DNA of 64,000 nt. Source: Polyangiales bacterium. Its GTDB lineage: Bacteria; Myxococcota_A; Polyangia; Polyangiales; Polyangiaceae. The notes beneath the pieces are model-generated. The model saw only the letters and a list, made by a program, of their open reading frames with translations, was not told where the DNA came from and did not search any database. A program made the translations under genes and the position numbers. Positions 2,767 to 21,247 of this stretch are shown here, piece by piece (the stretch's first letter is position 1; every line of letters begins with the position of its first letter). The stretch is taken from positions 44,340 to 108,339 of the forward strand of contig JBBRLQ010000003.1 in the NCBI GenBank assembly GCA_038231275.1, written 5' to 3'.

Positions 2767-3761
2767 TGCTGGCTAGTTTTCTCGATAGCTCCTTCTTCGG
2801 CAGCTCCTTCTTCGACCCGGTCCCGATGAAGTGGGAAGGGCAGATGCCCGAGTCGATGGCCGTGGGGGCACCCCACGTCGACTGGGTGTACTACGCCATC
2901 TACTACTTCTCGCTCTTCTTCCAGGTCGTCATCACGGGCGTGATGTTCTACTTCGTCTGGAAGTACAAGCGGAAGAAGGGCGACAAGCTCGAGACCCCGC
3001 CCGATCTCACGCGCCTCGAGATCATGTGGACGGTGCTCCCGCTGTTCTTCATCGTGATCCTCTTCCACGTCGGCTTCAAAGGCTACGTGAAGAACGCGAT
3101 CGCCGGCGACGGCGCGCTCGAGATCCGCGTCCGCGGAAAGCAGTGGCTGTGGGAGTTCGAGTACCCGAACGGCATGAAGGAGAACGGCAAGCTCGTCGTC
3201 CCCATCAACCGGCCGGTGAAGATGATCATGTCGAGCGACGACGTGATCCACAGCTTCTTCATCCCCGAGTTCCGCATCAAGAAGGACGTCGTCCCCGGCA
3301 TGTACTCGAACGTCGTGTTCGAGGCGAACAGGCTCGGCCCCGCGCACGTGTTCTGCACCGAGTACTGCGGCACCAGCCACTCCGGCATGCTCGCCGAGGT
3401 GCAGGTGATGACGACCGAGGCGTGGGACGATTACATGAAGAAAGGCCCGCCGCCTCCGCCAGAGTGCGAGGGCCGGCCCGCGTGCTGGGGCGAGAAGCTC
3501 TTCGTGCAGAACGCCTGCGTCACCTGCCACTCGCGCGACGGCGCCAAGTCGCCGGGGCCGACGTTCAAGGGCGTCTATGGCCGCAAAGAGCAGATGAAGA
3601 CGGGCGACATGGTGGACATCGAGGAGAACTACATCAAGGAGTCCATCCGCAAGCCGCAAGCCAAGATCGTCATGGGCTACGAGAACGTCGTGATGCCCAC
3701 GTTCTCGCTCAGCGACAACCAGGTCGACGCGCTGATCGCGTACCTGAAGACGATCAAATAG
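2763..3761 (+). CDS. coxB: cytochrome c oxidase subunit II with fused C-terminal cytochrome c domain (caa3-type)
   Basis: Two N-terminal TM helices; CuA site HSFFIPEF...[12 protein letters not shown]; C-terminal haem c motif CVTCH. The ATG at 2763 overlaps the SCO1 stop. Confidence 0.9.
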
Positions 3762-3798
3762 CGCGCACCTTAGCCGTATCCGCAGAGGACAGACGCAA

Positions 3799-5469
3799 AT
3801 GACCGCAGCAGCAACCCACTCTCCCGCCCACGACGACCACCCCGATCCGACCGAGAGCTACCTGAAGGCTACGCACTCGCTCATCCCGGGTGCGCGCGGC
3901 CTCCTCGCCTGGCTCACGACGCTCGATCACAAGCGGATCGGCGTCATGTACCTGATCAGCGTCCTTACGGCGTTCATGATCGGCGGCGTCTTCGCGCTCC
4001 TCGTCCGGCTGGAGCTCATGAGCCCCGGCAAGACGATCATGGATGCGGACACGTACAACCACATGTTCACGCTGCACGGCGTCGTCATGGTGTTTCTCTT
4101 CATCATCCCGTCGATCCCGGCGGCGATGGGGAACATCATCATGCCGATCCAGCTCGGCGCGAAGGACGTCGCCTTCCCGCGCCTGAACTTGATGAGCTTC
4201 TACATCTACGCGTTCGGCGCCTGCTTCGCGCTCTACAGCATGATCAACGGCGGCGTGGACACCGGGTGGACGTTCTACACCCCGTACAGCGCGCGCTCGA
4301 ACTCGTTCGTCATCCCGATGATCCTCGGCGCGTTCATCATGGGGTTCAGCTCCATCCTCACGGGCGTGAACTTCATCGCGACGATCCACAAGATGCGCGC
4401 GCCGGGCCTCACCTGGGGGCGCCTGTCGCTCTTCACGTGGTCGCTCTACGCGACGAGCATCATGCAGGTCCTGGCGACGCCGGTGCTCGCGATCACGCTG
4501 CTCCTCCTCACGATGGAGCGCACGCTCGGCATGGGCATCTTCGATCCCAAGCTCGGCGGAGACCCCGTCCTCTTCCAGCACTTCTTCTGGTTTTACTCGC
4601 ACCCGGCCGTCTACATCATGATCGTCCCGGGCATGGGCGTCGTGAGCGAGCTCATCGGCACGTTCGCGCGACGTCAGCTCGTCGGCTACTGGTTCATCGC
4701 GATGAGCTCGATCGGCCTCGCGCTGCTCGGCTTCCTCGTGTGGGGCCACCACCTCTTCGTCAGCGGCATGAGCGAGTACGCGGCGGCGATCTTCTCGGCG
4801 CTGACGTTCCTCGTGGCCATCCCGAGCGGTGTGAAGATCTTCAACTGGGTCGCCACGCTGCACAAGGCGAGCATTTCCCTGCAGACGCCGATGCTGTGGG
4901 CGCTCGCGTTCATCTTCGAGTTCACGATCGGCGGCCTCACCGGCCTCTTCCTCGGGATGCTCGCAACCGACGTGCACCTCCACGACACGTACTTCGTCGT
5001 CGCGCACTTCCACTACGTCATGGTCGGCGGCACCGTGATGGGCTTCTTCGGAGGCCTTCACTACTGGTGGCCGAAGTTCACCGGCAAGATGTACAGCGAG
5101 CGGCTGGGGCAGATCGGATTCGTGCTCGTGACGTTCGGCTTCAACCTGACGTTCATGACGCAGTTCGTGCTCGGCTCGCGCGGCATGCCGCGTCGCTACT
5201 ACGACTACTTGCCCGAGTACCACGAGCTCCACAGGTGGTCGACGATCGGATCCTGGTTCATCGGCGCGGGCTTCCTGACGCTCCTCTACATGTTCATCCA
5301 GTCGCTGCGCAGCGGCCCGAAGGCGCCGCGTAACCCGTGGGGATCGGCGGCGCTCGAGTGGCAGGTCCCGTCGCCGGCGCCGCTCGGCAACTTCCTGAAG
5401 GAGCCGCGGATCACGCGCGGTCCGTACGACTACCACCTCGCCAAGCCCGAGGAGCTCGAGCAAGAATGA
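3799..5469 (+). CDS. coxA: cytochrome c oxidase subunit I
   Basis: 556 aa, 12-TM haem-copper oxidase subunit I signature ([30 protein letters not shown]). Confidence 0.95.
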
Positions 5470-7407: not shown

Positions 7408-8079
7408 ATGAAAAATCCGCTTCGGCTCGCGCGCGCCCTTTCGAGCGCCGTGCGCCTGCTTCGAGATCCCAGCCGCCTCGACGAGGTGTTCCAGATGGCC
7501 GACGCGATGGTCGAGCCGACGGTGCTCCGCGCGATGGCCGACGCCGTCGCCAAAGACCCCGAAGGGGCCCGCGCGCTCGCCGAGCGTCCGCGCATCGGGC
7601 GAATCGATCTGGTGGCGCTGCGGCGGCTCCCCGAGGGCACGCTGGGGCGCGCGTTCGCCGAGCACATGCTCGCGGCAGGGCTCGATCCCGAGGCGCTGCC
7701 GCTCCTGACCGCCGACGACCCGCTGACGTACCTGCGCGCGCACCTCTACGAGACGCATGACGTGTGGCACGTGGTGACCGGGTTCGCGACCGACGTGGCG
7801 GGGGAGCTCGGGCTTCAGGCGTTCTACGTCGCGCAGGTGCCGGGGCGGCTGGCGCCGGCGCTGGTGGCGGGCGGGCTGCTCAACGCGGTCTTCTACCAGT
7901 GGGACGAGCGGGACGCGCGCATGCGGGCGATCGTGCGCGGGTGGCTGCTCGGCAAGCGCGCGCGGCCGCTCTTCGGGGCGCGCTGGGCCTCGATGTGGGA
8001 GGTGCCGCTCGACGAGGTCAGGCGCCGCTTCGGGGTCGACGTGGACGCCGTCGAGGACGCACTCCCTCGGGCTGCCTAG
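7408..8079 (+). CDS. Coq4-family protein (ubiquinone biosynthesis Coq4-like, HDxxH zinc-binding motif)
   Basis: Motif ETHDVWHVVTGFATDVAGE matches the Coq4 HDxxH-(x)~11-E signature. The gene is divergent from the TetR gene. Confidence 0.65.
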   Translation: MKNPLRLARALSSAVRLLRDPSRLDEVFQMADAMVEPTVLRAMADAVAKDPEGARALAERPRIGRIDLVALRRLPEGTLGRAFAEHMLAAGLDPEALPLLTADDPLTYLRAHLYETHDVWHVVTGFATDVAGELGLQAFYVAQVPGRLAPALVAGGLLNAVFYQWDERDARMRAIVRGWLLGKRARPLFGARWASMWEVPLDEVRRRFGVDVDAVEDALPRAA

Positions 8080-10992: not shown

Positions 10993-11702
10993 TGGCGCAC
11001 GTCCTCGTCCTCACCCACACGAAGGACGAAGGCCCCGGTCTGATCGCGCCCGCGCTCCGCGCGAAGAAGCTCGTTCCGCGTGCGATCCGCGGCTACGCGG
11101 GCGGGACCATCCCCGCCGAGGTCGGTCGCGCGCGCGGCCTCGTCGTGATGGGCGGTCCTATGGGCGTGCGCGACACCTCCACGCATCCGTTCTTGAAGGA
11201 CGAGATGCGCCTCATCGAGAAGGCGCTCCGCGCCGAGATCCCGATCCTCGGCGTCTGCCTCGGCAGCCAGCTCGTCGCGAGCGTGCTCGGCGCTCACGTC
11301 TCCCGCGCGACGGCGCGCGAGATCGGCTGGCTCCCCGTCGAGCTCGCCCCCAGCGCTGGGCGCGATCGCATCTTCGCAGGCGTCAAGTCGCCGCTCGTTC
11401 CCTGCCATTGGCACGGCGACGTCTTCACGTTGCCGCCCGGCGCGGTCTCTCTCGCCCGCAGCGCCCGCACGCGTTGCCAGGCCTTTCGCTACGGCCGCGC
11501 CGCGTACGGCCTCCTCTTCCACATGGAGCTGACGCGCCCCGGCGTCGCGCGCATGTGCCGCGCCTTCGCCGCCGAGCTCGCCGCCGAGAAGCTCACCGCC
11601 GCCGACATGCTCGCCGGCGCCGACAAGTGCCTCCCCAAGATCGACCCCATCGCCCGCGGCATCTTCGCCCGCTGGGCCGACGAGTGCGCGCGAGAACGTT
11701 AG
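10992..11702 (+). CDS. class I glutamine amidotransferase-like protein (GATase1)
   Basis: Nucleophile elbow GVCLGSQL and a downstream His (LLFHMEL). The ATG at 10992 is codon 53 of the track ORF and overlaps the preceding stop. Confidence 0.8.
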   Translation: MAHVLVLTHTKDEGPGLIAPALRAKKLVPRAIRGYAGGTIPAEVGRARGLVVMGGPMGVRDTSTHPFLKDEMRLIEKALRAEIPILGVCLGSQLVASVLGAHVSRATAREIGWLPVELAPSAGRDRIFAGVKSPLVPCHWHGDVFTLPPGAVSLARSARTRCQAFRYGRAAYGLLFHMELTRPGVARMCRAFAAELAAEKLTAADMLAGADKCLPKIDPIARGIFARWADECARER

Positions 11703-11920
11703 AAACTCGTTTTCAAGGGGTGTGAAGGGCCGCTCTCCGAAGGAGAACAGAAGTGGATGCCCAGCCCGTCCACTTCACGAAATTGTCGGCCGGCCTGATC
11801 CGAGCCCATTTCTGTTCGTCCGAGAGCACACACTCGCGCGAGCTGCTCGCGGAAGCCTCGAACCTATTTGGCGCGTTCGGCCCATCGCGGCGCGGCATGC
11901 GGGTTGCTCAAGGGGCGGCC

Positions 11921-12673
11921 ATGCGAAGCCCCTTTCCCCATCGTCTCCTTGGATTCACACTTTCCGCGGCGTGCGTCGTCGTCGCGTGCAGTAGCGGCTC
12001 CTCCGATCCCGGCACAGCCGGCGACGCGAGCAGCGGCTCCAGCTCCAGCTCCAGCTCTTCGAGCAGCGGCTCCAGCGCCAGCTCCAGCTCTTCGAGCAGC
12101 GGCTCCAGCGGTTCGAGCAGCGGCTCGAGCGGGAGCAGCGGGAGCAGCGGGAGCAGCGGGAGCAGCGGGAGCAGCGGGAACGGCGACGCGGGCGGCGACT
12201 CCGGCTTCGATGGGGGCCGCCCGGATTGCACGAACGAAAACCACGAGCCGAACGAGACCGAAGCCGCCGCCGCGACGCTGCCCGACATCGACGACTGCGA
12301 CTCGAGCGCCACCAACGTGACGAGCGTGGCCTCGGGCACCGCCGACGTTGACGCCTTCAAGTTCGTCGGCAAGGACACGGTTGGCTGCCTCGTCGATCCG
12401 ACCGCGCAGATGAACGTCGCCGGCGCCGAGCTGTGCATGTTCGTCGCTTGCAAGACCGGGACGGCGAACGTTTCGAAGTGCAGCGCGGGCGCGGCGTCGG
12501 CGACCTCGCCCGGCGGCAAGCCTGGGTGCTGCATCCAGACCACCGATCCGCTGACGACGACCTTCGCGTGCGGCGGCTCCGACGATTCGGCCGACGTGTA
12601 CCTCCGCGTGAAGCAGCTCGCGAGCAATCCGACGAGCTCGTGCCTTCCCTACCAGATCGCGTACCACTTCTGA
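11921..12673 (+). CDS. secreted lipoprotein with Ser/Gly-rich repeat linker and Cys-rich C-terminal domain
   Basis: Signal peptide plus lipobox (MRSPFPHRLLGFTLSAACVVVAC|SSG); a long (GSS)n linker; a C-terminal ~150 aa domain with 8 Cys. An alternative ATG lies at 11897. Confidence 0.6.
   Translation: MRSPFPHRLLGFTLSAACVVVACSSGSSDPGTAGDASSGSSSSSSSSSSGSSASSSSSSSGSSGSSSGSSGSSGSSGSSGSSGSSGNGDAGGDSGFDGGRPDCTNENHEPNETEAAAATLPDIDDCDSSATNVTSVASGTADVDAFKFVGKDTVGCLVDPTAQMNVAGAELCMFVACKTGTANVSKCSAGAASATSPGGKPGCCIQTTDPLTTTFACGGSDDSADVYLRVKQLASNPTSSCLPYQIAYHF
12031..12180. repeat. in-frame trinucleotide/9-mer microsatellite (AGC/GGC)n encoding the (GSS)n linker
   Basis: ggctccagctccagctccagctcttcgagcagc ... 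gggagcagcgggagcagcgggagcagcggg. Confidence 0.6.
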
Positions 12674-12712
12674 CCGCGGGCACCCCCGTCGGTTGTCGGG
12701 TAAAGTTCGACG

Positions 12713-13675
12713 ATGCGCTCGCTCAACGCACGCGTGGGTCTCTTCGCTGCCGCCGGCGCAGCGGTCCTCGCGTGCTCGGCGCTTTACGACGTCTCCGCGC
12801 TCGGGCCTGGCGACGTCGCTGGGGCCGACGGCGGCGACGCGGGCGGCCTCACCGACGCGGGTCAAGACAGCGCGATGGGTGGCGACGGCGGCGGGACCGG
12901 CTCCGATGCTCCGCCCGGAAACGACGGCCAGCCCCCCGCCGACGCGCGCACCGACGGGCCCTCCAAGACGGACGCCGGGTGTCCCATCGGCGAGGGTCCG
13001 GCGATGATCCGCGGAGAGACGACGTGCATCGATGCCACCGAGGTCACCCGCGGGCAGTACTTCACGTTCCTCCAATCGGGCGTCGGGGCAACCTTCGCGC
13101 CGGCGATTTGCAATTGGAACACGTCGCTGCTCCCGACGGAGGGCGGCGGCGCCCCGTACCCGTGGCCGCCGACGGCGACGGACATGGACTCGCCGATCGC
13201 GCGCGTCGATTGGTGCGACGCCGCGACGTACTGCGCGTGGGCGGGCAAACAGCTTTGCGGCACCGTCGCCGGCGGCGCCACGCTGAATTACACCGACTTC
13301 ACCGACGCCGCGGTCTCGCAGTGGTACCAGGCCTGCTCACGCAACGGCGCGCGGCAGTTCCCCTACCCAGGCCCTTACTCGCCGGACGTCTGCGCGATCG
13401 ACGTCGACGCCGGCGGCCCCTTCGGCGTAGCGCGCGTCGGCGGCTACCCCGGTTGTGAGGGAGGCTACGCGAAAATTTTCGATATGGTCGGCAACGTCTA
13501 CGAGTGGCTCGACAGCTGCACCGGCGACGGAAAGGCCGACAACTGCAACGTCGCCGCGGGCGGAAGCGTCGCGACGTCGGGCGTGCAGTTCAACATGGAC
13601 TGCGCGGAGATCCTCACCTACGGCCGCGACCAACACATCTCCTACATCGGCTTTCGCTGTTGTGCGCGCCCCTAG
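12713..13675 (+). CDS. formylglycine-generating enzyme (FGE)/SUMF1-domain lipoprotein
   Basis: FGE-sulfatase domain signatures TEVTRGQYFTF, DMVGNVYEWL, GFRCC; N-terminal signal peptide with lipobox (LAC). Confidence 0.8.
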   Translation: MRSLNARVGLFAAAGAAVLACSALYDVSALGPGDVAGADGGDAGGLTDAGQDSAMGGDGGGTGSDAPPGNDGQPPADARTDGPSKTDAGCPIGEGPAMIRGETTCIDATEVTRGQYFTFLQSGVGATFAPAICNWNTSLLPTEGGGAPYPWPPTATDMDSPIARVDWCDAATYCAWAGKQLCGTVAGGATLNYTDFTDAAVSQWYQACSRNGARQFPYPGPYSPDVCAIDVDAGGPFGVARVGGYPGCEGGYAKIFDMVGNVYEWLDSCTGDGKADNCNVAAGGSVATSGVQFNMDCAEILTYGRDQHISYIGFRCCARP

Positions 13676-13686
13676 CGGACGGGGGC

Positions 13687-13724
13687 GTAGAGCAAGCGTC
13701 GTTACTACGTAACGCTTGCTCTAC
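13687..13724. terminator. perfect 13-bp stem / 12-nt loop hairpin (GTAGAGCAAGCGT...ACGCTTGCTCTAC) between convergent genes; candidate bidirectional terminator without a U-tract
   Basis: gtagagcaagcgt-cgttactacgta-acgcttgctctac, 12 nt after the stop of the FGE-domain gene and 54 nt from the convergent gene's stop. Confidence 0.45.
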
Positions 13725-13777
13725 CCATCAAGTGGGTCGCGCCAGTCGTTGCCCGCTACGGTCAAACGACTTCTGCT

Positions 13778-14584
13778 CTACCGGGAACCGCCCCAGATAT
13801 AGAACGCTGCGGCTCCCCCAGCTGAGAGCAAGCTCACGACGAGCGCGATGTCGGCAACGAGGAAGCGGGTGCGCACGGCGGAGATCTGCGCGTCGGCACA
13901 ATGCGGCGCGCACTGCCTGTCGAGATCGCGGTACTCCGACGCGCCGGTGAGGCCGAGATACGCGAACGCGCCGAGCGCGGCCAGCGAAACGCCGCCGAGC
14001 GCGTAGACCGCAGGTGAGATCGCGCGGCCCGCCGGCTTCTTTTCCGATGCGAGCGGCGGCGGGGAAAGGAGCGGGGCGGGCGAGGTGGTGGGGGGCGGGG
14101 CCGGGTCCCTCGCCGCCGGCGCGGGGCGGACCAGGTGAAGCGTCACCACGCGAACGCCTTCTCCTTCGCGCAGGACGAGCTGCTCGCTCGCCGGATCGAA
14201 GCCGGTGGCCTCGTACCTCAAGGCATGCGGCCCCGGATCCACCCGGATCGCGCGCGCCTCGTTGGACTCCGCGACGATGGCCCCATCGAGGAGGAGCCGC
14301 CCGCCGGTCACGTCGTGCCCGTCGCCGTCCTTGGAGTTGACGACGATCGATGGAATCCGCCGATCGACGTCGGTGAGCCATTCCGTGCAGGATGCACGCA
14401 CCACTCCTGGGCACTCCCGCTGCGCGCACGCGACGAGGAGGGCGCGCGCGTCGACGAGCCTGAGCTCATCGCGAAGGACCTGCCCGCGCTCGGCTTGCTC
14501 CGCGCACTCGGCGGCCCTTCCCGCCGCATGGGCAGCGGTGGAGAGAGAGAGGAGGAAGAGGGCGGGGAGAAAGCGCGGGGGCAT
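13778..14584 (-). CDS. hypothetical exported/membrane protein, last gene of the activator-kinase operon
   Basis: Signal peptide (MPPRFLPALFLLSLSTAAHA), a Cys-containing extracytoplasmic domain, a Pro-rich stretch and two C-terminal TM helices. It starts 22 nt after the kinase stop on the same strand. Confidence 0.55.
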   Translation of the reverse strand: MPPRFLPALFLLSLSTAAHAAGRAAECAEQAERGQVLRDELRLVDARALLVACAQRECPGVVRASCTEWLTDVDRRIPSIVVNSKDGDGHDVTGGRLLLDGAIVAESNEARAIRVDPGPHALRYEATGFDPASEQLVLREGEGVRVVTLHLVRPAPAARDPAPPPTTSPAPLLSPPPLASEKKPAGRAISPAVYALGGVSLAALGAFAYLGLTGASEYRDLDRQCAPHCADAQISAVRTRFLVADIALVVSLLSAGGAAAFYIWGGSR

Positions 14585-14606
14585 CGCGTTGGGGGAGGAG
14601 CAAATA

Positions 14607-15935
14607 CTAGAGCAAGCAGTCGCGGTTGAATTGTCGTCGACCGGCGTCGTCGACGAAGTAGGGGACGCAGGGCTTTGCGCGGGCGGCGTGCGTCGGAGTC
14701 GGAGTCGGAGTCGCGGTCGGAGTCGGAGTCGCGGTCGGAGTCGGAGTCGGAGTCGGAGTCGCGGTCGGAGTCGGAGTCGCGGTCGGAGTCGGGGTCGGGG
14801 TCGGAGTCGGAGTCGGGGTCGGAGTCGGAGTCAGCGTCGCGGTCGGGGTCGGGATCGTATGGAGGGACCAGGCTGCGGCCGCGGCGGCGGTGGTGAGGAG
14901 CGCGGCGGCGGCGAGGGCCAGCGGGCGGCGGCGTGCGCGCGACGGCGCGCGAGCTGGGATGGTGAAGTCCGGCGGGACGGCGCTCGTCGTGAGGGCGGCC
15001 TCGATGGCGGCGACTTTTTGGTCACGCTCGGCGAGTGGCGCGGCTGCGGTCTTGGCGACCCACGCCGCGATCTCGGCCGGGAGCGCGGGGGCGATGCAGG
15101 GCTCGAGGGCCAGCGCCATCTCGAGGCCGCTCGCGTAGCGTTGCGCGGGATCGCGGGCGAGGGCCTTGAGGACGACGGCATCGAACGCCGGAGGGACGCC
15201 GCGGGTGACTGTGGAGGGCGGCGGGACGTCGTGATCGAGGATCTTCTGCATCACGCCCGCCTCCGTTTCGGCCACGAACAGCCGCTTCCCCGTCAACGCC
15301 TCCCAGAGAACGACCGAAGCCGCGTAGAGATCGCTGCGAGGCGTGAGGGTGTCGCCGTGGAGCTGCTCGGGCGGCATGTACGGCAAGGTTCCGCGGATCG
15401 TGCCCTCGCGGGTCGTGCTGTTGCGGCCGTGCGCCTTGGCGATGCCGAAGTCGAGGAGGCGAGCGGTGCCGTCGGCGGACACGAGGACGTTGCGCGGGGT
15501 GACGTCGCGATGCACGAGGTGAAGGAGCGCGCCGTCGGATCCGCGCGCGTTGTGGGCCGCGTGGAGGCCACGAAGGACATCGCGGACGACGGCGGCGGCG
15601 ATCGCGGGTGGAGCGGCGCCGCTGAGCGCGAGGAGGCGCTCGAGCGTCTCGCCGCGCACGTACTCGAGGACGAGGAACGCTTCCTCTTTCGCCTCGATCA
15701 CGTCGAGCACCTGCACCACGTTGGGGTGCGCGATCCGCGACGCCAGGCGGGCTTCTTCCAGCAAAATTTCCCGGAAGGCCTCGCTCGCCGCCAGGTGCGG
15801 GTGCAGACGCTTGATCGCCACGAGCCCGCCGAAGCCGGCCGCGTCGACCCTGCGCCCCAGGTGCACCGTCGCCGTGCCGCCGCTCGCGATCACGTCGCAA
15901 AGGACGTAACGGTCGTGGATCCGCTCGATCGCCAT
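14607..15935 (-). CDS. Hanks-type Ser/Thr protein kinase with TM segment and (TP)n repeat linker
   Basis: Kinase subdomains: Gly loop IASGGTATV, VAIK, HRDVTPRNVLV, DFG, and GTLPYMPPE in the activation segment. C-terminal TM helix, then TPTPTPTPTATPTP..., then a short Cys-containing tail. The ATG lies 3 nt after the activator stop. Confidence 0.9.
   Translation of the reverse strand: MAIERIHDRYVLCDVIASGGTATVHLGRRVDAAGFGGLVAIKRLHPHLAASEAFREILLEEARLASRIAHPNVVQVLDVIEAKEEAFLVLEYVRGETLERLLALSGAAPPAIAAAVVRDVLRGLHAAHNARGSDGALLHLVHRDVTPRNVLVSADGTARLLDFGIAKAHGRNSTTREGTIRGTLPYMPPEQLHGDTLTPRSDLYAASVVLWEALTGKRLFVAETEAGVMQKILDHDVPPPSTVTRGVPPAFDAVVLKALARDPAQRYASGLEMALALEPCIAPALPAEIAAWVAKTAAAPLAERDQKVAAIEAALTTSAVPPDFTIPARAPSRARRRPLALAAAALLTTAAAAAAWSLHTIPTPTATLTPTPTPTPTPTPTPTPTATPTPTATPTPTPTPTATPTPTATPTPTPTHAARAKPCVPYFVDDAGRRQFNRDCLL
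14692..14856. repeat. hexanucleotide microsatellite (GAGTCG/GCGGTC/GGGTCG)n of ~27 units, encoding the (TP)n linker of the kinase on the minus strand
   Basis: gagtcggagtcggagtcgcggtcggagtcggagtcgcggtcgg... uninterrupted for ~165 nt, in frame. Confidence 0.75.
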
Positions 15936-15938
15936 TTC

Positions 15939-17318
15939 TCAGCGGCCGCGGCGCGCGCGCACGGTATAGAAATAGCGACGCGCGATGCCGGACGCCGCCG
16001 CGGCCTTCGAGATGTTGTTGCCGTGCTCGGCGAGCATCTTGTCCACGTAACGTTCCTCGAACGCTTCGAGCACGCGCTGGCGGGCCTGGGGGAAGGGGAG
16101 GCCGCTCGCGACGACCTCGGCGATGACATCGCTCGCCTCGGGTTTGCTGTCCGCGCCGGGTGGCGGCGACGTGCGCCGGAGGCCGTCCATATCCGCGAGA
16201 TCGCCGAGGGCGACGCGGTTGGCGACGGCGTTGTAGAGCTCGCGCACGTTCCCCGGCCAGGTGTAGCCCTCGAGACGGTCGAGCAGATCTTCGGGCACGG
16301 GCTCTGCGTTTCGGCACAGGCCGCGCCAGAACGTCGCCGCGAGCAAGCGCACGTCCCCACGGCGCCGGCGAAGCGGCGGGAGCTCGATCCGCGCGACGGC
16401 GAGTCGGTAGTAGAGGTCGTCGCGGAAGCGGCCCGCCTGGATTTCGCGCTCGAGATCCCGCCGCGTCGCGGCCAGGATGCGCACGTTCGTCTTGATCCAG
16501 CTGGTGCCGCCGAGGCGCTGTACCTGGCCCGATTGCACCGCGCGGAGGAGCTTCGCCTGCAGGCCCACGTCGAGATCGCCGATCTCGTCGATGAGGAGCG
16601 TCCCGCCGTTGGCCTCCTCGAAGACGCCCGGACGCGCCGCGATCGCGCCGGTGAACGCTCCCTTCTCGTGGCCGAAGAGCTTGGCCTCCATCAGGCTGGG
16701 CGCGAACGTCGTGCAATCGAAGACGACGAACGGACCGCCCGCCCTCGCGCTCGCCTCGTGGAGCGCCTCGGCGAGGAGCTCTTTGCCGGTCCCCGTCTCC
16801 CCTTCCAGGATGACGGGCACGTCCGACAACGCGAGACGCTGGCAGATCGGGTAGAGGCGCATCATCTCGGGGCTCGACCCGATGACGCGCCCGAAGCGGT
16901 TCGCCCCTTCGAGCTCGGTCTGCACGATCTCCCCGAAGCGCACCGCGATCGTGGTGTCGCCGACGCGCACGAGCTCCCCACCGGCGAGGAACGCCTCGAC
17001 CACCGGAAACGCATTCACCAGCGTGCCGTTCTTCGAGTCGAGATCCGTCAAGCGCACGCGCCCGCCGTCGAACTCGAGCGCCAGGTGGCGGCGCGAGACG
17101 AGCGGATCGGACAGGCGCAGCTGGCACGCCTCACTCTTGCCGACGTACACGCGGCCCGGCGACGACGCATCCATGCGCGCGCGCCCGCCCACGTCAGGCC
17201 CGGCGATCACCTCGAGCTGCACCGTCGGCACGGCGAACGTCGGGCGCGCGGTGACGGGCCTCTCGAGGGTCGACGATTCGCTGGGCATCGCCGAGCTCGC
17301 GTTGCGGAGGGGCTGCAT
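15939..17318 (-). CDS. sigma-54-dependent transcriptional activator with N-terminal FHA domain (FHA-AAA+-HTH)
   Basis: FHA core (GRVYVGKSEACQLRLSDPLVSRRHLALEFDGGRVRLTDLDSKNGTLVN); AAA+ sigma-54 interaction domain (GETGTGKELLAEALH, GAFTGA, GTLLIDEIGDL); C-terminal Fis-type HTH. Start set to the ATG at 17318 (codon 27 of the track ORF). Confidence 0.9.
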   Translation of the reverse strand: MQPLRNASSAMPSESSTLERPVTARPTFAVPTVQLEVIAGPDVGGRARMDASSPGRVYVGKSEACQLRLSDPLVSRRHLALEFDGGRVRLTDLDSKNGTLVNAFPVVEAFLAGGELVRVGDTTIAVRFGEIVQTELEGANRFGRVIGSSPEMMRLYPICQRLALSDVPVILEGETGTGKELLAEALHEASARAGGPFVVFDCTTFAPSLMEAKLFGHEKGAFTGAIAARPGVFEEANGGTLLIDEIGDLDVGLQAKLLRAVQSGQVQRLGGTSWIKTNVRILAATRRDLEREIQAGRFRDDLYYRLAVARIELPPLRRRRGDVRLLAATFWRGLCRNAEPVPEDLLDRLEGYTWPGNVRELYNAVANRVALGDLADMDGLRRTSPPPGADSKPEASDVIAEVVASGLPFPQARQRVLEAFEERYVDKMLAEHGNNISKAAAASGIARRYFYTVRARRGR

Positions 17319-17454
17319 CGTGGCCGCGGAGGATAGTCGATAGGCGGATGGGCGCACGCCACGATGGGAGCGAACGGCGCCCATCCTTGTTCGCATTCGA
17401 GCCCAACCTCCGGTCTCCGAGCGCTAACCGATGGAAACCATTCGAAGGTGGGGG

Positions 17455-17470
17455 AGGCACACACGTTGCT
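17455..17470 (+). promoter_or_regulatory. sigma-54 (-24/-12) promoter candidate, aGGCAC-N5-TTGCt
   Basis: GGCAC-acacg-TTGC gives exact GG-N10-GC spacing and matches the TGGCAC-N5-TTGCW consensus at all core positions. It sits ~35 nt upstream of the lipoprotein ATG (17505), in the intergenic region shared with the divergent FHA-sigma54 activator gene. Confidence 0.6.
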
Positions 17471-17504
17471 CTAGCCGGGCTGTCCGCAACTGGAGGTTAC
17501 CCTG

Positions 17505-18344
17505 ATGGCCACGACAATATTCTCCCACGCTCTTCTTCCTCTTCTTCCTCTTCTTCCTCTTCTTCCTCTTCTTCTCGCGCCCGCCGCGCTCGGCGTTGCC
17601 CTGCCCGCATGCAGCAGCACCAGCAGCAGCGACTCGGGAGGCGGCGCCGATGTTCCGCTGCACGGTGAAGCTCCGGTTCTCCCGGGTTTCGCGCACGACA
17701 CCGGCCTTCAGCCGCCGAGTGGACCCGCGCAGGTTTCGTTCAAGCTCTTGGCCGGCGGCGCGGTCGCCGTCGACACCGCGGCAAGCCCGGGAGGCGGCAA
17801 GCTCCAGGGCAAGCCGGGCACCGGCACGTACAAGCTCGACATGCACATCAAGATGGAGGGCCACCTCAAAGTGGACGCGGGCACGGTGAAGTACGACGGC
17901 GCTCTCGCTGGACTCCAGAATGTCGACATCCCGATTTCGGGACATGCGCCGTTCGACGCGTTCCTCTTGTCGGGCAAGCCCGCGCACGTCGAGGCAGACG
18001 TCCCGGAGACGAAGCTCCCCGACGTCCCCCTCGGCAGCGTCCCCGGTCACCTCGCGCTCACGCTGGTCGCCGGGTCGAAGGTCATCACCGAGTACCATGC
18101 CACCTGCCTCGACGTGAAGGGCGGCAAGGCGACGCTCAAGGGCCAGACCGTCACGAGCGGCACGCTGGTGTTGAAGGCATCGATCGTCCTCGACGTCCCT
18201 CTCTTCAAGAAGACGATCGATCTTCCGGACACGACCGTCGACATCCCGTCGTCGACCGCCGAGCTCGACACGACGCCGGCCGCAGCTTCGGGCACGGCCG
18301 ACGGCACCGACGGCACGTGCGTGGCCGCCGCCGCCGGGCCCTGA
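17505..18344 (+). CDS. secreted lipoprotein (hypothetical) with (LLP)n repeat signal peptide
   Basis: Signal peptide MATTIFSHALLPLLPLLPLLPLLLAPAALGVALPAC|SS with a lipobox; Ser/Gly linker; Cys near the C-terminus. A GGAGG sits 8 nt upstream of the ATG and a -24/-12 element ~35 nt further upstream. Confidence 0.6.
   Translation: MATTIFSHALLPLLPLLPLLPLLLAPAALGVALPACSSTSSSDSGGGADVPLHGEAPVLPGFAHDTGLQPPSGPAQVSFKLLAGGAVAVDTAASPGGGKLQGKPGTGTYKLDMHIKMEGHLKVDAGTVKYDGALAGLQNVDIPISGHAPFDAFLLSGKPAHVEADVPETKLPDVPLGSVPGHLALTLVAGSKVITEYHATCLDVKGGKATLKGQTVTSGTLVLKASIVLDVPLFKKTIDLPDTTVDIPSSTAELDTTPAAASGTADGTDGTCVAAAAGP
17531..17576. repeat. 9-nt tandem repeat (CTCTTCTTC)x5 encoding (LLP)n within a lipoprotein signal peptide
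   Basis: ctcttcttcctcttcttcctcttcttcctcttcttcctcttcttc. Confidence 0.65.
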
Positions 18345-18345
18345 G

Positions 18346-19824
18346 CTAGTCGATCGCTTTTTCGATCGCGTCGGTGAGGACCTTCAGGGTCTTGATGCGC
18401 GCGTGGTGTTTGTCGTTCGCTTCGACCAAGGTCCACTTCGCGATCTCGGTGCTCGTGCGGTCGACCATGTCGCAGGCGGCGAGCTCGTAGGCCTCCCACT
18501 TGTCGCGGTTGCGCCAGTCCTCGTCGGTGATCTTGAAACGCTTGAAGCCGGTCTTCTCCCGCTCCTTGAAGCGTTTGAGCTGCTCTTCCTTCGTGATGTG
18601 CAGCCAGAACTTGAGGAGGATGACGCCGTTCTGGACGAGCTGCTCCTCGAAGTCGTTGATCTCGCCGTACGCGCGCATCCAGTCCTCGGGCGGCGCGAGG
18701 CCCTCGACGCGCTCGACGAGGACGCGGCCGTACCAGGAGCGATCGTAGATCGTGAAGCGCCCCTTCTGCGGCAGGTAGCGCCAGAAGCGCCATAGGTACG
18801 GCTGCGCGCGCTCGTCCTCGGTCGGCGCAGCGATCGGGGTCACGTGGTATTGGCGCGCGTCGAGGGCGCCGGTGATGCGGCGGATGGCGCCGCCCTTGCC
18901 GGCCGCGTCCCACCCTTCGAACATGCACACCACGCTCACCTTGTGGAAGCGCGAGTTGCGGCTCAGCTTGTTGAGCTTGCCTTGGAGGCGTTCGAGCTCG
19001 TCGTCGTAATGCTTTTCGTCCACGCGCTGCGACATGTCGAGCGTGCGCAGCAGGTACAGCTTGTCGAGCGCCGGGACGCTCGGAGGAACGCGGCCGGTTC
19101 GCTTGGGCAGCGGAGAGTCGAGGCGCGCGCGCATCGTCTCCAGGAGCACCTTGCCGACGGTCAGGTTCCGGTAGCGCGCGTCGGTCCCCTCGACGACGGT
19201 CCACTGCGCCTCGGGCGTGCTCGTCTGACGGAGGACGCGCGCGCTGACTTTTCGGAACTCGTCGTACTGATCGACGCGACGCCAATCCTCGGGCGTGACG
19301 CGCCAGCTCGTCTTGGGATCGCTCTCGAGCTCGTGAAAGCGGGCTTTTTGTGCCTTTTTCGAGACGTGGAACCAGAATTTGACGAATAGGACGCCGTCGT
19401 TCGCCAGCATGCGCTCGAGGCGGACGATCGACTCGATGCGAACCTCCAGATCGCTCTTTCGCAGCGTGCCCTCGACGCGCTGGAGGATGGGGTCGGTGTA
19501 CCAGGACCCGAAGAAGATTCCGACGTTGCCCTTCTTGGGGAGGCGGCGCCAGAAGCGCCACATCGGCGGGTGCATCCGCTCGTCCTCGTCCATCGCGCCG
19601 AACGCGAAGGTCGAGACGTGACGTGGATCCATCCACTCGTTGAGGAGGTTCACCGTCTCGCCCTTGCCGGCGCCTTCTACGCCGTTCACGAGGATGACGA
19701 CGGGGAACTGCGCGCGCTCCACGACCTCCAGCTGGGCCTCGAGGAGCGCCTCGCGAAGCGGCGGGACCTCCTTCTTGTAGACGACCTTGGGGATGGCGTG
19801 GCCGAGCTCGGCGGACTCGAACAT
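18346..19824 (-). CDS. two-domain polyphosphate kinase 2 (polyphosphate:AMP phosphotransferase-like)
   Basis: Two tandem PPK2 domains, each with Walker A-like (GVEGAGKG / GWDAAGKGG) and PPK2 lid motifs (PPMWRFWRRLPKKG / PYLWRFWRYLPQKG). ATG verified at 19822-19824. Confidence 0.9.
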   Translation of the reverse strand: MFESAELGHAIPKVVYKKEVPPLREALLEAQLEVVERAQFPVVILVNGVEGAGKGETVNLLNEWMDPRHVSTFAFGAMDEDERMHPPMWRFWRRLPKKGNVGIFFGSWYTDPILQRVEGTLRKSDLEVRIESIVRLERMLANDGVLFVKFWFHVSKKAQKARFHELESDPKTSWRVTPEDWRRVDQYDEFRKVSARVLRQTSTPEAQWTVVEGTDARYRNLTVGKVLLETMRARLDSPLPKRTGRVPPSVPALDKLYLLRTLDMSQRVDEKHYDDELERLQGKLNKLSRNSRFHKVSVVCMFEGWDAAGKGGAIRRITGALDARQYHVTPIAAPTEDERAQPYLWRFWRYLPQKGRFTIYDRSWYGRVLVERVEGLAPPEDWMRAYGEINDFEEQLVQNGVILLKFWLHITKEEQLKRFKEREKTGFKRFKITDEDWRNRDKWEAYELAACDMVDRTSTEIAKWTLVEANDKHHARIKTLKVLTDAIEKAID

Positions 19825-19852: not shown

Positions 19853-21247
19853 TCAGGCGGCCGTACGGTACGGTCCGGCTGGGACCTTCTTTCGCTCGGG
19901 GACGAAGCCCGCGGCGCGCGTCGCCACGACCACGCCGATGCCGGCGAAGATGACCACGAGCGTCACGATGTGGCCGAGGCCCGGCAGCGAGCTGAGGACG
20001 AGGAAGAGGAGGCAGCCGACGCCGAGGTGGACGTAGGCGTTCTGCGTCTTGTGCCGGAGGAGCGCCTCGCCCACGGTCGTCAGGACCGCGATGATGCCGG
20101 CGTAGGCGCCGAAGATGGCGAGGATGATGCCGACGAACGCGACCGGGATTCCGATGACCGTGATGCAGAGCGCGGCGACGGCGAGGATCGCGGCGGGGAT
20201 GCCGACGATGCCGAGCGCGAAGGAGCGGACCGGGCGGGTGGCGACCTCGCCGCGAAGCGTCTCCATCCGCTTGCCAGCAAGCGCGAGGAGGAGCACGCCG
20301 AAGATGAAGAGGAACGCGGAGCGGGTGAGCGCGTCGCCGACGTCCTTCAGGATGTGGGATTTCGTTCCACCCTTCGCGGCTTCGACCTCGTCTTCTCCGT
20401 CGGTGCGGGTGATGTCGCCGCCGATCTGCGCGTCCTTGCCGCGGTGGAGCACGCCGCCGACGACGCCGACGTCGCCTTCGACCTCCGCGCCGTCCTCGAC
20501 GGTGAGGTTGCCGCCGACGGTGGACACGTCGCCGTGCACGCTGGCGCCCTGGCGGACGATGACATTGCCGCCGGTGACCGAGATGTCGCCCGTGACCTTG
20601 CCGAGCACGTCGAGGTTGCCGCCGAACACGGTGATGTCGTGCGCAAGCTCGTTTTTCTCGATGACGAGGTTGCCGCCGGTGATCACGCGGTCCTCGCCGC
20701 GGTCGCCGTGCCGGCCGCGCTTGCCTGGGTGCGCAGAGGGGTGCGGCGGCGTCGAGTCGTCGTGCGCGCTCGGCGGCTCCGGCGGATCCGGCGGATCCGG
20801 GGGCTCGGGCGGCTCGGGGGCATGCGGCGCGGCGATCGGCGGGATCGGCGGGATCGCCGGGATCGGCGGGACCGTGTGGGCGTCGTGTCCGGGGATGGCG
20901 GCTGCGGCGGCGGCGTCACGTCGCAACGAGACGAGCGTTCCGTCGCGCTTGGCGATCCAGCCGTCCTCGGGCAGGACGAGATCGAGCACCTTCGTGGCGG
21001 GCTGATCCTTCACGTGAACGTCGATGTGGTCGCCCGCGTCGGCGCCGAACGGCGTCTGCACGACCAAGCTCCACCCGGCGGCCTCGGCCAGCTTGCGAAT
21101 CGCGAGGCCGCGCGGCGCGCCGTCGAGATCGAGCGTCACCTTCTTGTCTCCCTCCGGCCAGGCGCCCTCGCGTTTGACCTCCGCGCTCGCGGTGACCGCG
21201 ATCAGGAGGAGTGCGTGGGTAAGGAGCCAAACCATTAGGGACTTCAT
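19853..21247 (-). CDS. exported beta-helical-repeat protein with Pro-rich linker and C-terminal polytopic membrane domain (toastrack/bactofilin-like repeats); putative envelope stress-module partner of the upstream ECF sigma/anti-sigma pair
   Basis: Start set to the ATG at 21247 (codon 128 of the track ORF), which overlaps the anti-sigma stop (ATGA). Signal peptide MKSLMVWLLTHALLLIAVTASA; Pro-rich PIPAIPPIPPIAAPHAPEPPEPPDPPDPPEPP; repeats ITVFGGNLDVLGKVTGDISVTGGNVIVRQGASVHGDVSTVGGNLTVEDGAEVEGDVGVVGG; 4-5 C-terminal TM helices. Confidence 0.65.
   Translation of the reverse strand: MKSLMVWLLTHALLLIAVTASAEVKREGAWPEGDKKVTLDLDGAPRGLAIRKLAEAAGWSLVVQTPFGADAGDHIDVHVKDQPATKVLDLVLPEDGWIAKRDGTLVSLRRDAAAAAAIPGHDAHTVPPIPAIPPIPPIAAPHAPEPPEPPDPPDPPEPPSAHDDSTPPHPSAHPGKRGRHGDRGEDRVITGGNLVIEKNELAHDITVFGGNLDVLGKVTGDISVTGGNVIVRQGASVHGDVSTVGGNLTVEDGAEVEGDVGVVGGVLHRGKDAQIGGDITRTDGEDEVEAAKGGTKSHILKDVGDALTRSAFLFIFGVLLLALAGKRMETLRGEVATRPVRSFALGIVGIPAAILAVAALCITVIGIPVAFVGIILAIFGAYAGIIAVLTTVGEALLRHKTQNAYVHLGVGCLLFLVLSSLPGLGHIVTLVVIFAGIGVVVATRAAGFVPERKKVPAGPYRTAA
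20771..20870. repeat. short tandem repeats (GGCGGATCC / GGGATCGGC units) encoding the Pro-rich linker of the beta-helical membrane protein (minus strand)
   Basis: ggcggatccggcggatccggg ... ggcgggatcggcgggatcgccgggatcggcggg. Confidence 0.5.

Follow-up and report, generated by a model that had tools for sequence, protein, structure and literature searches.

Does a group of four neighbouring genes in the 64-kb stretch of DNA analysed here (the window) encode a circuit in which a membrane kinase signals, through an FHA-type sigma-54 activator, to the promoter of the adjacent lipoprotein gene? Such was the original prediction. The genes involved are the following.

15939-17318, minus strand: FHA-AAA+-HTH sigma-54 enhancer-binding protein (the activator), 459 aa, from Pfam, motifs and orthologue alignment; alternative starts 17288 and 17396, maximal ORF in the ORF list 15939-17396
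14607-15935, minus strand: Hanks-type Ser/Thr kinase, 3 nt downstream of the activator; cytoplasmic kinase domain, one TM segment, extracytoplasmic Thr/Pro linker, C-terminal Cys loop
13778-14584, minus strand: 268-aa exported 2-TM protein, 22 nt downstream of the kinase; 4-Cys three-helix bundle, PEGA/transthyretin-like beta-sandwich, Pro-rich linker, two C-terminal TM helices
17505-18344, plus strand: all-beta lipoprotein, 279 aa, core domain only, divergent from the activator; lipobox LPAC (ORF list)

All the sequence features named in the prediction are in place. The minus-strand trio is packed with gaps of 3 nt and 22 nt, as claimed; the -24/-12 element at 17455-17470 and the GGAGG 8 nt before the lipoprotein ATG are both as described, and so are a five-fold repeat giving (LLP)n in the signal peptide and a hexanucleotide repeat of about 27 units in the kinase. 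Gene order, domains, motifs, and the conservation of the promoter and of an enhancer-like block are read directly from the sequences.

The activator carries the hallmarks of enhancer-binding proteins, namely Walker A, Walker B, the GAFTGA loop and a marginal C-terminal helix-turn-helix (GETGTGK at residue 173, DEIG at 244 and GAFTGA at 220 of the 459-aa form). Pfam matches include FHA (PF00498, 50 bits), Sigma54_activat (PF00158, E 4.7e-62, spanning the full 168-position profile) and HTH_8, the last at 22.6 bits against a cut-off of 22; the C-terminus is conserved among orthologues. The Gly-Arg, Ser-x-x-His and Asn-Gly residues of FHA domains are present as PGR, SRRH and NGT, and are invariant across three aligned orthologues. 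The module has every residue required to bind phosphothreonine, to act as an ATPase and to contact sigma-54. Neither Pfam nor NCBIfam gave a Response_reg match, and NCBIfam matches start at about residue 105-135; with an FHA domain at the N-terminus and no receiver, an NtrC-family response regulator proper is ruled out. The protein is 75% identical to its L001 counterpart and 65-66% to those of L018 and L019 (L numbers denote related contigs), and tblastn with the activator as query turned up no second enhancer-binding-protein gene within the 64 kb. The start at 17396 is disfavoured: orthologues begin a few residues ahead of a shared STLERP motif. From the alignment, the true start is probably ATG 17318 (459 aa) or 17288 (449 aa), which would leave a divergent spacer of 186-216 nt. 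One more element lies just ahead of the gene.

17330-17335, minus strand: TATCCT, a possible -10 box of a promoter for the activator gene, 11 nt ahead of ATG 17318

In the window, L001, L004, L014, L015, L018 and L019 a TAT(G/C/T)CT box recurs 8-19 nt ahead of the first start codon of the activator gene, and it is also visible in alignment A4. The assignment is a weak one, because a scan for consensus sigma-70 promoters was empty across 11600-18500.

The kinase matches Pkinase (PF00069, E 1.9e-37). VAIK, HRD and DFG, as in Hanks-type kinases, are invariant in four orthologues (the window protein and three aligned with it), and so are the activation-loop TT and the C-terminal Cys loop, C-x-P-Y-F-V-D-D-x-G-x-R-x-F-x-R-x-C-L. 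The catalytic loop reads HRDVTPRN, with Thr in place of the Lys of HRDxK; the position is T/T/S/N among the four. One TM segment is predicted, at residues 338-358. Two more kinase genes reside elsewhere in the window. In the 268-aa protein the hydrophobic N-terminus was taken by eye for a signal peptide, and the two C-terminal TM helices are predicted.

The lipoprotein gene is preceded by two elements.

17455-17470, plus strand: sigma-54 promoter aGGCAC-ACACG-TTGCt, consensus match 10/11, predicted start site near 17481
17492-17496, plus strand: Shine-Dalgarno GGAGG, 8 nt ahead of ATG 17505, read from the sequence

GG and GC are 10 nt apart, as in -24/-12 promoters, and aGGCAC-N5-TTGCt has no second match in the 64 kb. 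Is the match a product of chance in GC-rich DNA, the lipoprotein being read from an ordinary sigma-70-type promoter? Taken alone the motif is no better than chance, because shuffles yield 0.46 matches per 64-kb window with the strict pattern and 0.83 with one mismatch allowed. Moreover, eight further matches of at least 9/11 occur in the window, and among the six of the nine examined four are inside ORFs (12311, 13322, 13505, and 53777, neighbouring the 51902 region), only those at 11893 and 17455 being intergenic and just before a start codon. What makes the motif convincing is its position beside the activator gene and its conservation at orthologous loci. It is kept in 9 of 10 orthologous upstream regions which otherwise differ. 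GGCAY-N5-TTGCW, matching 9-10 of 11 consensus positions, is found in the activator-lipoprotein spacers of the window, L001, L004, L014 and L015, and a weaker motif (8-9/11) lies 13-44 nt before the ATG of the unlinked orthologues of L002, L003, L005 and L006. Motifs of at least 9/11 occupy 37 of 365,172 positions, five being activator-lipoprotein spacer promoters, and the chance of one per 100-nt upstream region is <1%. No convincing -24/-12 motif was found upstream in L008 and in the distant homologues L009-L013. The distance from the -12 C to the ATG is 13-14 nt in seven promoters and 15 nt in an eighth; the mRNAs may thus be near-leaderless, and such fixed spacing is hard to explain unless transcription starts at the position that the motif predicts. 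Since a sigma-70 consensus is also absent from 11600-18500, a chance match is very improbable.

Inverted repeats, proposed in the original prediction as worth looking for, were found upstream of the sigma-54 promoter and are partly conserved (no strand is assigned to these elements).

17346-17407: candidate enhancer (UAS), made of an inverted repeat, a near-palindrome and a TTCGAGCCCAAC element
17346-17355 and 17377-17386: perfect inverted repeat GGATGGGCGC/GCGCCCATCC, from the inverted-repeat search
17366-17382: near-palindrome GGGAGCGAACGGCGCCC, within the candidate enhancer
17396-17407: TTCGAGCCCAAC, within the candidate enhancer

The block of repeats and palindromes, centred on CGAGCCCA, is found some 50-110 nt ahead of the -24 element and is conserved in alignment A4. 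An inverted-repeat arm of 10 nt was reached in 17 of 2000 shuffles. Of 7 activator-upstream regions 6 contain GAGCCCA, which none of 300 shuffles did. Palindrome matches concentrate in the spacers, the pattern having been derived from the same sequences, several of which are alignably related.

The distribution of the module among related contigs bears on which protein serves this promoter. The divergent activator-lipoprotein pairing occurs in five independent contigs (window, L001, L004, L014 and L015). The window, L001, L018 and L019 all have the activator-kinase-2-TM operon in tightly packed form, with gaps or overlaps of 1-4 nt save the 22 nt before the window 2-TM gene, and an FGE-sulfatase lipoprotein gene is near each. 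The orthologous operon of L018 has opposite it a different, C2-domain lipoprotein preceded by cGGTAT-N5-TTGCT, and in L009 and L010 a distant C2-bearing relative of the window lipoprotein is divergent from an FHA-GAF-sigma-54 activator. The linkage is not obligatory, as the lipoprotein genes of L002, L003 and L005 have no adjacent activator. Dozens of enhancer-binding proteins are encoded by myxobacteria, and could stand in for a linked activator. The promoter might accordingly be real and yet served by another such protein, the FHA activator mainly controlling distant genes and the adjacency being historical. The -24/-12 motif kept in L002, L003 and L005 with no activator gene nearby, the L019 operon, which has no divergent target, and the large enhancer-binding-protein families of myxobacterial genomes (PMC8538405) fit this view. 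It is nonetheless quite unlikely in the face of the pairing in five independent contigs, the related pairings in the more diverged L018 and L009/L010, and the conserved repeat block at enhancer distance within the shared spacer. In addition, the unlinked promoters of L003 and L005 have CGAGCC-type matches some 100-120 nt ahead of them, which fit the same activator encoded elsewhere in the genome.

Control of the adjacent lipoprotein gene by the FHA activator is thus favoured, and the comparisons across related contigs back the core reading, from kinase to activator to lipoprotein. Two further claims of the original prediction do not hold. That such a pairing is rarely resolved is too strong for these genomes, as L018 and L019 carry two kinase/FHA-activator pairs each, one pair with its own divergent sigma-54 promoter. 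Nor is the circuit self-contained, because an FGE-sulfatase lipoprotein recurs beside it and a further sigma-54-like promoter is found at 11893.

11893-11908, plus strand: sigma-54-like promoter cGGCAT-GCGGG-TTGCt, 9/11 consensus, intergenic, 13 nt before ATG 11921
11921-12673, plus strand: Ser/Gly-rich lipoprotein, 250 aa from ATG 11921, lipobox VVVAC; maximal ORF from 11753
12027-12185, plus strand: SSG microsatellites in the Ser/Gly-rich lipoprotein (TRF)
12713-13675, plus strand: FGE-sulfatase-domain lipoprotein (Pfam PF03781, E 9.8e-14), convergent with the 2-TM gene

The promoters at 11893 and 17455 stand on either side of the activator operon, and GAGCCCAT-N3-TGTTCG (11802-11818), upstream of the former, resembles the enhancer block at 17377-17407. 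The Ser/Gly-rich protein has no Pfam or NCBIfam match. L001, L018 and L019 have FGE relatives next to the module, two of them in L018; the one in L001 is 37% identical over the full length. The Ser/Gly-rich lipoprotein and FGE genes are probable sigma-54 targets; the promoter lacks comparative support, because no sigma-54 motif was found at the L018 FGE operon.

The all-beta lipoprotein itself ends with a stop codon 1 nt from that of a convergent PPK2 gene. It has a hydrophobic segment (residues 4-38) and the Cys of the LPAC lipobox; the signal is atypical in having Pro at -2 and an N-region lacking Lys or Arg. In the family alignment [AG]C and, after it, a stretch rich in S/G are seen in all full-length homologues. 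An AF2 model (pLDDT 83.9) had no significant structural neighbour. The family, as delimited by profile search, is all-beta, has no Pfam entry, and comprises at least 312 clusters at 50% identity, often with C2 or lectin domains at the tip. Coding microsatellites are common across the window, and two fall within the module.

17530-17574, plus strand: (CTCTTCTTC)x5 polypyrimidine microsatellite in the lipoprotein signal peptide (TRF: 5.0 copies, 100% identical), encoding LLPLLPLLPLLPLL, i.e. (LLP)n
14692-14852, minus strand: hexanucleotide microsatellite, (TP/TA)n, in the extracytoplasmic linker of the kinase (TRF: period 6, 26.8 copies, 83% matches)

None of 16 homologues and 12 orthologous loci of the lipoprotein has the (LLP)n array; in kinase orthologues the linker is P/T/A/S-rich, of similar length and non-repetitive. 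Judging from these comparisons, both microsatellites are lineage-specific expansions of low-complexity segments, the signal-peptide core and the extracytoplasmic linker, which need no fixed length. The length variability asserted in the original prediction for both components is thus putative; being in-frame multiples of 3, the repeats can alter length and cannot switch a gene off. Logan contig L017 (SRR19962015) ends within the TP repeat.

How might the parts work together? Plausibly, the genes form an envelope-signalling module in a myxobacterium of the Polyangiales type, and in it a Ser/Thr kinase takes the histidine-kinase role of NtrB/NtrC-type systems; we hold this to be probable, and infer throughout the steps of phosphotransfer, DNA binding and transcription. 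The sensor would consist of the kinase, with its TM helix, Thr/Pro linker and 20-residue external Cys loop, and of the co-made 2-TM protein, which would bring to it a periplasmic helical-bundle and beta-sandwich domain; the FGE-sulfatase-fold lipoprotein is probably part of it. The active kinase would autophosphorylate on threonine, as suggested by the activation-loop TT invariant among orthologues, and the co-translated activator would dock on the phosphothreonine through its N-terminal FHA domain. Docking might lift inhibition of the AAA+ domain, or let the activator itself be phosphorylated.

Kinase and activator might be co-expressed and the signal nevertheless run otherwise. The kinase could switch the activator off by phosphorylating it, or the phosphothreonine read by the FHA domain could sit on some further protein, be it the 2-TM protein, in its cytoplasmic loop, or one of the genome's many other kinases. 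In the characterised PknH-EmbR and PknB-GarA pairs, on the contrary, it is the cognate kinase on which the FHA domain docks. The kinase gene directly adjoins that of the activator in four contigs (3-nt gap or 1-nt overlap), L015 has the same gene order by tblastn, and the activation-loop threonines are invariant, all of which speaks against a different signal route. On the other side, the sign of regulation is not readable from sequence, the window holds two further kinase genes, and FHA domains bind phosphothreonine on varied partners, as described for TssL in the type VI threonine-phosphorylation pathway (PMC3953482). On balance a different signal route is unlikely.

Given activation by the cognate kinase, the activator would oligomerise in the divergent spacer, at about -75 to -135, where it would occupy the CGAGCCCA-type repeats and palindromes. 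Autoregulation would be possible, because the enhancer-like block sits just upstream of the activator's own putative promoter. ATP and the GAFTGA loop would then open the sigma-54 closed complex at GGCAC-N5-TTGCT, turning on the all-beta lipoprotein, and the promoter at 11893 would probably also be activated, turning on the Ser-rich lipoprotein/FGE pair.

The module, a myxobacterial membrane Ser/Thr kinase with a phosphothreonine-reading sigma-54 activator and a lipoprotein promoter, is of a known signalling type and not a new kind; the cluster provides a tidy, testable case of a recognised type that is not known to have been dissected. To our knowledge, a chain from kinase to FHA activator to promoter has not been biochemically demonstrated for the Myxococcus xanthus proteins. 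A close likeness is with these FHA-domain enhancer-binding proteins from the same phylum (Jelsbak, Givskov and Kaiser 2005, PNAS 102:3010, as cited in PMC12288465 and PMC4320627). Like the window activator, they have an N-terminal FHA domain replacing the receiver, a Fis-type HTH and a sigma-54 AAA+ core, and both are presumed to be under the control of Ser/Thr kinases. The window differs in having a co-operonic kinase, an accompanying 2-TM protein and FGE lipoprotein, and a nameable candidate target promoter with an enhancer-like site. In PknH-EmbR, similarly, the partner of a membrane Hanks kinase is a transcription factor that bears an FHA domain, and the pknH and embR genes are side by side. 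In Mycobacterium tuberculosis the FHA domain mediates recruitment and phosphorylation, according to the account of Molle et al. 2003 given in PMC6213207. EmbR, however, belongs to the SARP family of sigma-70-type activators and bears its FHA domain at the C-terminus, whereas the output domain in the window is a sigma-54 AAA+ ATPase acting from a candidate enhancer. With NtrB/NtrC the module shares the AAA+/GAFTGA/HTH core, an enhancer about 80-140 nt upstream of a GG-N10-GC promoter, and a regulator gene divergent from its target, with binding sites (candidate here) adjoining the regulator's own promoter; it has neither receiver domain nor histidine kinase, and input would be via phosphothreonine recognition. 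Finally, in the PpkA-Fha1 system of type VI secretion, as outlined in PMC3953482 and PMC10482370, a membrane Hanks kinase with accessory envelope proteins likewise addresses a cytoplasmic FHA protein, but there the effect is post-translational, on assembly of the secretion machine, whereas the module described here would act on transcription.

The original prediction placed an FHA-type sigma-54 activator, a Hanks-type kinase and an exported protein on the minus strand, with a divergent lipoprotein gene on the plus strand, and all four reading frames are confirmed. They lie in DNA with a G+C content of about 70%, in the following arrangement.

Genes of the cluster (window coordinates, strand, product)
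15939-17396, minus strand: activator, as it appears in the ORF listing
14607-15935, minus strand: kinase, 3 nt downstream of the activator
13778-14584, minus strand: 268-aa exported protein with two transmembrane segments (2-TM protein), 22 nt downstream of the kinase
17505-18344, plus strand: 279-aa lipoprotein, divergent from the activator

Pfam models recognize FHA, Sigma54_activat, AAA lid and, marginally, HTH_8 domains in the activator, and Pkinase in the kinase. The 268-aa and 279-aa proteins have no Pfam match, and an NCBIfam search added no specific family. The activator carries the motifs GETGTGK, GAFTGA and DEIG, along with the phosphothreonine-binding residues of FHA domains (PGR, SRRH, NGT). 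Since orthologues begin a few residues ahead of a common STLERP motif, the activator probably starts at ATG 17318 or 17288, and the divergent spacer would then measure 186-216 nt. The kinase retains VAIK, HRD and DFG, and the TT of its activation loop is invariant in the alignment of orthologues; in the catalytic loop, HRDVTPRN, Thr takes the position of Lys in HRDxK kinases. As a single transmembrane helix is predicted at residues 338-358, the Thr/Pro tract and the last 25 residues of the kinase would be extracytoplasmic. This C-terminus (window 14607-14690) contains the loop C-x-P-Y-F-V-D-D-x-G-x-R-x-F-x-R-x-C-L, which is largely kept in all 4 orthologous kinases and is matched by no Pfam model.

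The promoter proposed for the lipoprotein gene, aGGCAC-ACACG-TTGCt, is indeed found at 17455-17470, with GGAGG 8 nt ahead of ATG 17505. It is the sole such match in the 64-kb window; shuffled sequence yields 0.46-0.83 matches per 64 kb, and the window match by itself proves nothing. Orthologous upstream regions differ except for the -24/-12 motif and one upstream block.

Sigma-54-like motifs upstream of the lipoprotein gene in the window and in related contigs (L numbers)
Window: AGGCAC-N5-TTGCT, activator adjacent
L001: AGGCAC-N5-TTGCT, activator adjacent
L004: GGGCAC-N5-TTGCT, activator adjacent
L014: AGGCAT-N5-TTGCA, activator adjacent
L015: AGGCAT-N5-TTGCA, activator adjacent
L002: TGGTCC-N5-TTGCT, activator not adjacent
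L003: CGGCAC-N5-GTGCT, activator not adjacent
L005: CGGCAT-N5-GTGCT, activator not adjacent
L006: CGGTAT-N5-TTGCT, activator not seen (contig end)

No convincing -24/-12 motif precedes the lipoprotein gene in L008, or in the more distant homologues of contigs L009-L013 (48-50% identity). Throughout the sequence scanned, motifs matching the consensus TGGCAC-N5-TTGCW at 9 or more of 11 positions occur at 37 of 365,172 positions, the five true cases included.

The comparison started from 16 homologues sharing words with the window lipoprotein, and genomic contexts were gathered by exact-protein look-up, by a scan of reference genomes, and by a metagenome scan with the activator N-terminus. The relatives of the window all derive from Polyangiaceae, Labilithrix or other Myxococcales metagenome bins. 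According to tblastn searches with the window proteins, activator and lipoprotein genes are divergent in the window, L001, L004, L014 and L015; L001 and L007 are one contig. Through homologues of the 268-aa protein (n=53), two contigs of greater divergence were reached, L018 and L019, in which the activators are 65-66% identical and the order activator-kinase-2-TM protein is retained, with gaps or overlaps of 1-4 nt. In L001 these three genes continue, through overlapping stop and start codons, into two more, which encode a Cys-rich lipoprotein and an FGE-sulfatase protein; L019 is similar. An FGE-sulfatase gene, omitted from the original prediction, flanks the module in the window (12713-13675), L001, L018 and L019. 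Myxobacterial kinases commonly have an FGE-sulfatase domain fused to their outer end, which suggests that the FGE lipoprotein may be a detached part of the sensor. In L006, genes for the lipoprotein, the kinase and the 2-TM protein follow one another in that order on one strand. The first 120 nt of this contig encode on the reverse strand an IS3-type transposase-like fragment (...LDVSRSGFYAWDE), just upstream of the lipoprotein promoter. Gene order behind this putative transposase fragment indicates that the lipoprotein stays with the kinase despite rearrangement.

Both distant contigs carry a second kinase/FHA-activator pair about 6 kb or less from the first (L018 10566-14792, L019 13005-14756). 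The second activator of L018 is divergent from a Peptidase_C39_2 gene, and GGGCAC-N5-TTGCA is found 15 nt ahead of the peptidase ATG; these genomes use the kinase/FHA-activator design repeatedly. The first activator of L018 faces a different lipoprotein of 503 aa (2605-4116, minus strand), made of Cys-rich repeats and a C2 domain (PF00168); it is not homologous to the core of the window lipoprotein, and cGGTAT-N5-TTGCT is still found upstream. L009 and L010 each have a distant member of the window lipoprotein family, divergent from an FHA-GAF-sigma-54 activator, and the lipoprotein of L009 (7929-9632, plus strand) and its L010 counterpart share the Cys-rich repeats and C2 tail of the 503-aa protein. 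Through these pairings, FHA-type activators and this group of mosaic lipoproteins are repeatedly linked. Between the FHA-GAF activator and the lipoprotein homologue, both contigs host a lipoprotein ORF of about 65 aa, preceded by a conserved perfect palindrome, GCTGCTAC-A-GTAGCAGC (L009 ~7645-7662, L010 ~7668-7685).

A search for enhancer-like inverted repeats upstream of the lipoprotein promoter had been suggested, and the window spacer does contain them.

Repeats in the window spacer
17346-55 and 17377-86: perfect 10-nt inverted repeat, GGATGGGCGC/GCGCCCATCC
17366-82: near-palindrome GGGAGCGAACGGCGCCC
17396-17407: TTCGAGCCCAAC

The 10-nt arm length was reached by only 17 of 2000 shuffles. 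Alignment of five spacers revealed three conserved blocks, the first adjoining the activator start, the second corresponding to GGCGCACGG, the third to GGCKCCCATC-N12/13-TTCGAGCCCA. In an unbiased k-mer count, GAGCCCA was found in 6 of 7 activator-upstream regions (equalled in 0 of 300 shuffles) and CGAGCCCA in 5 of 7 (equalled in 1 of 300), counts inflated by kinship among some of the seven sequences. This count was preferred to the enrichment of GGGMKCG-N3-CGMKCCC in activator spacers, which was set aside because the pattern had been defined from the same spacers. Tandem 17-bp palindromes of this form, 24 bp apart, occur in L004 and L018. A perfect match at 51902, as well as a 9/11 promoter-like match at 53777, is attributed to chance, both being located within ORFs. 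With the -24 element about 50-110 nt downstream, the repeat block occupies the position usual for an enhancer, and is a candidate for this role.

The same block is found just upstream of a TAT(G/C/T)CT box, located 8-19 nt ahead of the first activator start codon in all 7 loci, an arrangement suggesting that the activator may regulate its own gene. Its mRNA is perhaps leaderless, a weak reading because a consensus sigma-70 scan of 11600-18500 gave no matches; a terminator scan of the same region gave none either. L019 has a 9/11 sigma-54-like motif, CGGCAC-GACCG-TTGCC (3870-3885), on the strand of the activator gene and about 290 nt ahead of it; chance could account for this motif, as could an uncalled small gene or sigma-54-dependent autoregulation.

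The N-terminus of the 279-aa product is long and hydrophobic, with LPAC at its end, and the lipobox Cys is kept in every full-length relative. A profile search assigns the family 312 clusters at 50% identity. Most members are 400-560 aa long and carry variable C-terminal modules, among which C2 and a concanavalin-like lectin domain (Laminin_G_3); the all-beta window protein is a bare core, lacking the C-terminal module found in most relatives. That the protein acts at the surface or contacts membranes is a guess. A pore-forming fold is not claimed: the Foldseek list consists mostly of pore-state MACPF, CDC and gasdermin chains, none of them significant (best E 6e-3, TM ~0.1). The stop codons of the lipoprotein gene and of a convergent gene for a two-domain PPK2 are 1 nt apart (18344-18346), which leaves no space for a terminator.

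A second sigma-54-like site, cGGCAT-GCGGG-TTGCt (cGGCATgcgggTTGCt), is found at 11893-11908, 13 nt ahead of ATG 11921, in the spacer preceding a gene for a Ser/Gly-rich lipoprotein; the FGE gene follows 39 nt further on. An enhancer-like sequence, GAGCCCAT-N3-TGTTCG (11802-11818), lies 91 nt upstream. Among the nine window matches at 9/11 or better, only 11893 and 17455 were seen in gene-facing spacers, on either side of the activator operon; of the other seven, four were checked and all four are within ORFs. No orthologous arrangement supports site 11893, and the FGE operon of L018 lacks a sigma-54 motif. Homology between the Ser-rich lipoprotein and the 194-aa Cys-rich lipoprotein of the L001 operon was rejected, as BLASTP detected no similarity.

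The distance between the C of the -12 element and the ATG is 13-15 nt in eight sigma-54-like promoters: window 11893, L001 7972, L002 633, L006 279, L014 2631 (minus strand), L015 543 (minus strand), L018 ~4150 (minus strand, 503-aa gene) and L018 14309 (FHA-activator/peptidase pair). With GC at -13/-12, the AUG would fall at about +3 to +5 by this spacing, which would leave the corresponding mRNAs with no leader or almost none. The four remaining promoters (window 17455, L003, L004, L005) have leaders of 35-71 nt with a Shine-Dalgarno sequence. Such constancy of spacing indirectly supports a transcription start at the position predicted by the motif, and suggests that sigma-54 promoters of these genomes often make near-leaderless mRNAs. 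Text searches of the literature retrieved no paper linking sigma-54 with leaderless mRNAs.

The (LLP)n array in the lipoprotein signal peptide and the Thr/Pro array in the kinase are both present as predicted. The (LLP)n tract is found in none of the relatives of the window lipoprotein, whose signal peptides are shorter and have the basic N-region that the window protein lacks. Similarly, the linkers of orthologous kinases are P/T/A/S-rich and of similar length, and are non-repetitive. About 10 coding tandem arrays occur in the window, three of them in this cluster. Further in-frame repeats (12027-12185, 20771-20871, 50118-50189, 50268-50305; periods 9, 18, 21 and 33) lie within genes whose products are secreted or of low complexity. 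Coding microsatellites characterise this genome in general, beyond the module alone; given this abundance and the non-repetitive orthologues, the two repeats look like local expansions of low-complexity segments. An exact look-up in the protein collection retrieved four neighbours, all on one NCBI contig (the 2-TM protein, the 485-aa activator ORF, PPK2 and the FGE protein), and found neither the kinase (14607-15935) nor the lipoprotein (17505-18344) sequence. The two missing proteins are the carriers of the tandem repeats, and either start-codon calling or repeat length could be responsible.

FHA-type sigma-54 activators were reportedly described in M. xanthus in a 2005 study, and are presumed to be under the orders of Ser/Thr kinases. 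To our knowledge, no complete chain from kinase to activator, enhancer and promoter has been worked out, and text searches of the literature yielded no study in which a kinase acts on an FHA-type sigma-54 activator, nor one in which such a chain is followed through to a promoter. The locus is an unusually complete example of this known kind, and the mechanism is proposed with fair, though far from full, confidence. All four parts (kinase, activator, candidate enhancer, promoter) are comprised within 3.8 kb and can be compared with orthologues, and the candidate binding site and the promoter are predicted closely enough for testing. The locus also opens a first way into the regulation of a lipoprotein family that has no Pfam model and comprises several hundred clusters.

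A broader and rather improbable reading would join these elements. The module would regulate Polyangiales-specific mosaic surface lipoproteins targeted to membranes, built on an uncharacterised core of long beta strands often tipped with C2 or lectin domains. The cue, from the envelope or from prey, would be detected by a split extracytoplasmic sensor formed by the Cys-loop kinase, the 2-TM protein and the FGE-fold lipoprotein, and the sigma-54 transcripts of many targets would start at the AUG or at most 4 nt from it. If true, a class of sigma-54-dependent leaderless mRNAs would exist.

That kinase and activator families have expanded in myxobacteria is well established (PMC8538405). The practical value of the locus is limited, and its design follows the expected pattern; the nearest mechanistic analogue of the module is the PknH-EmbR pair.
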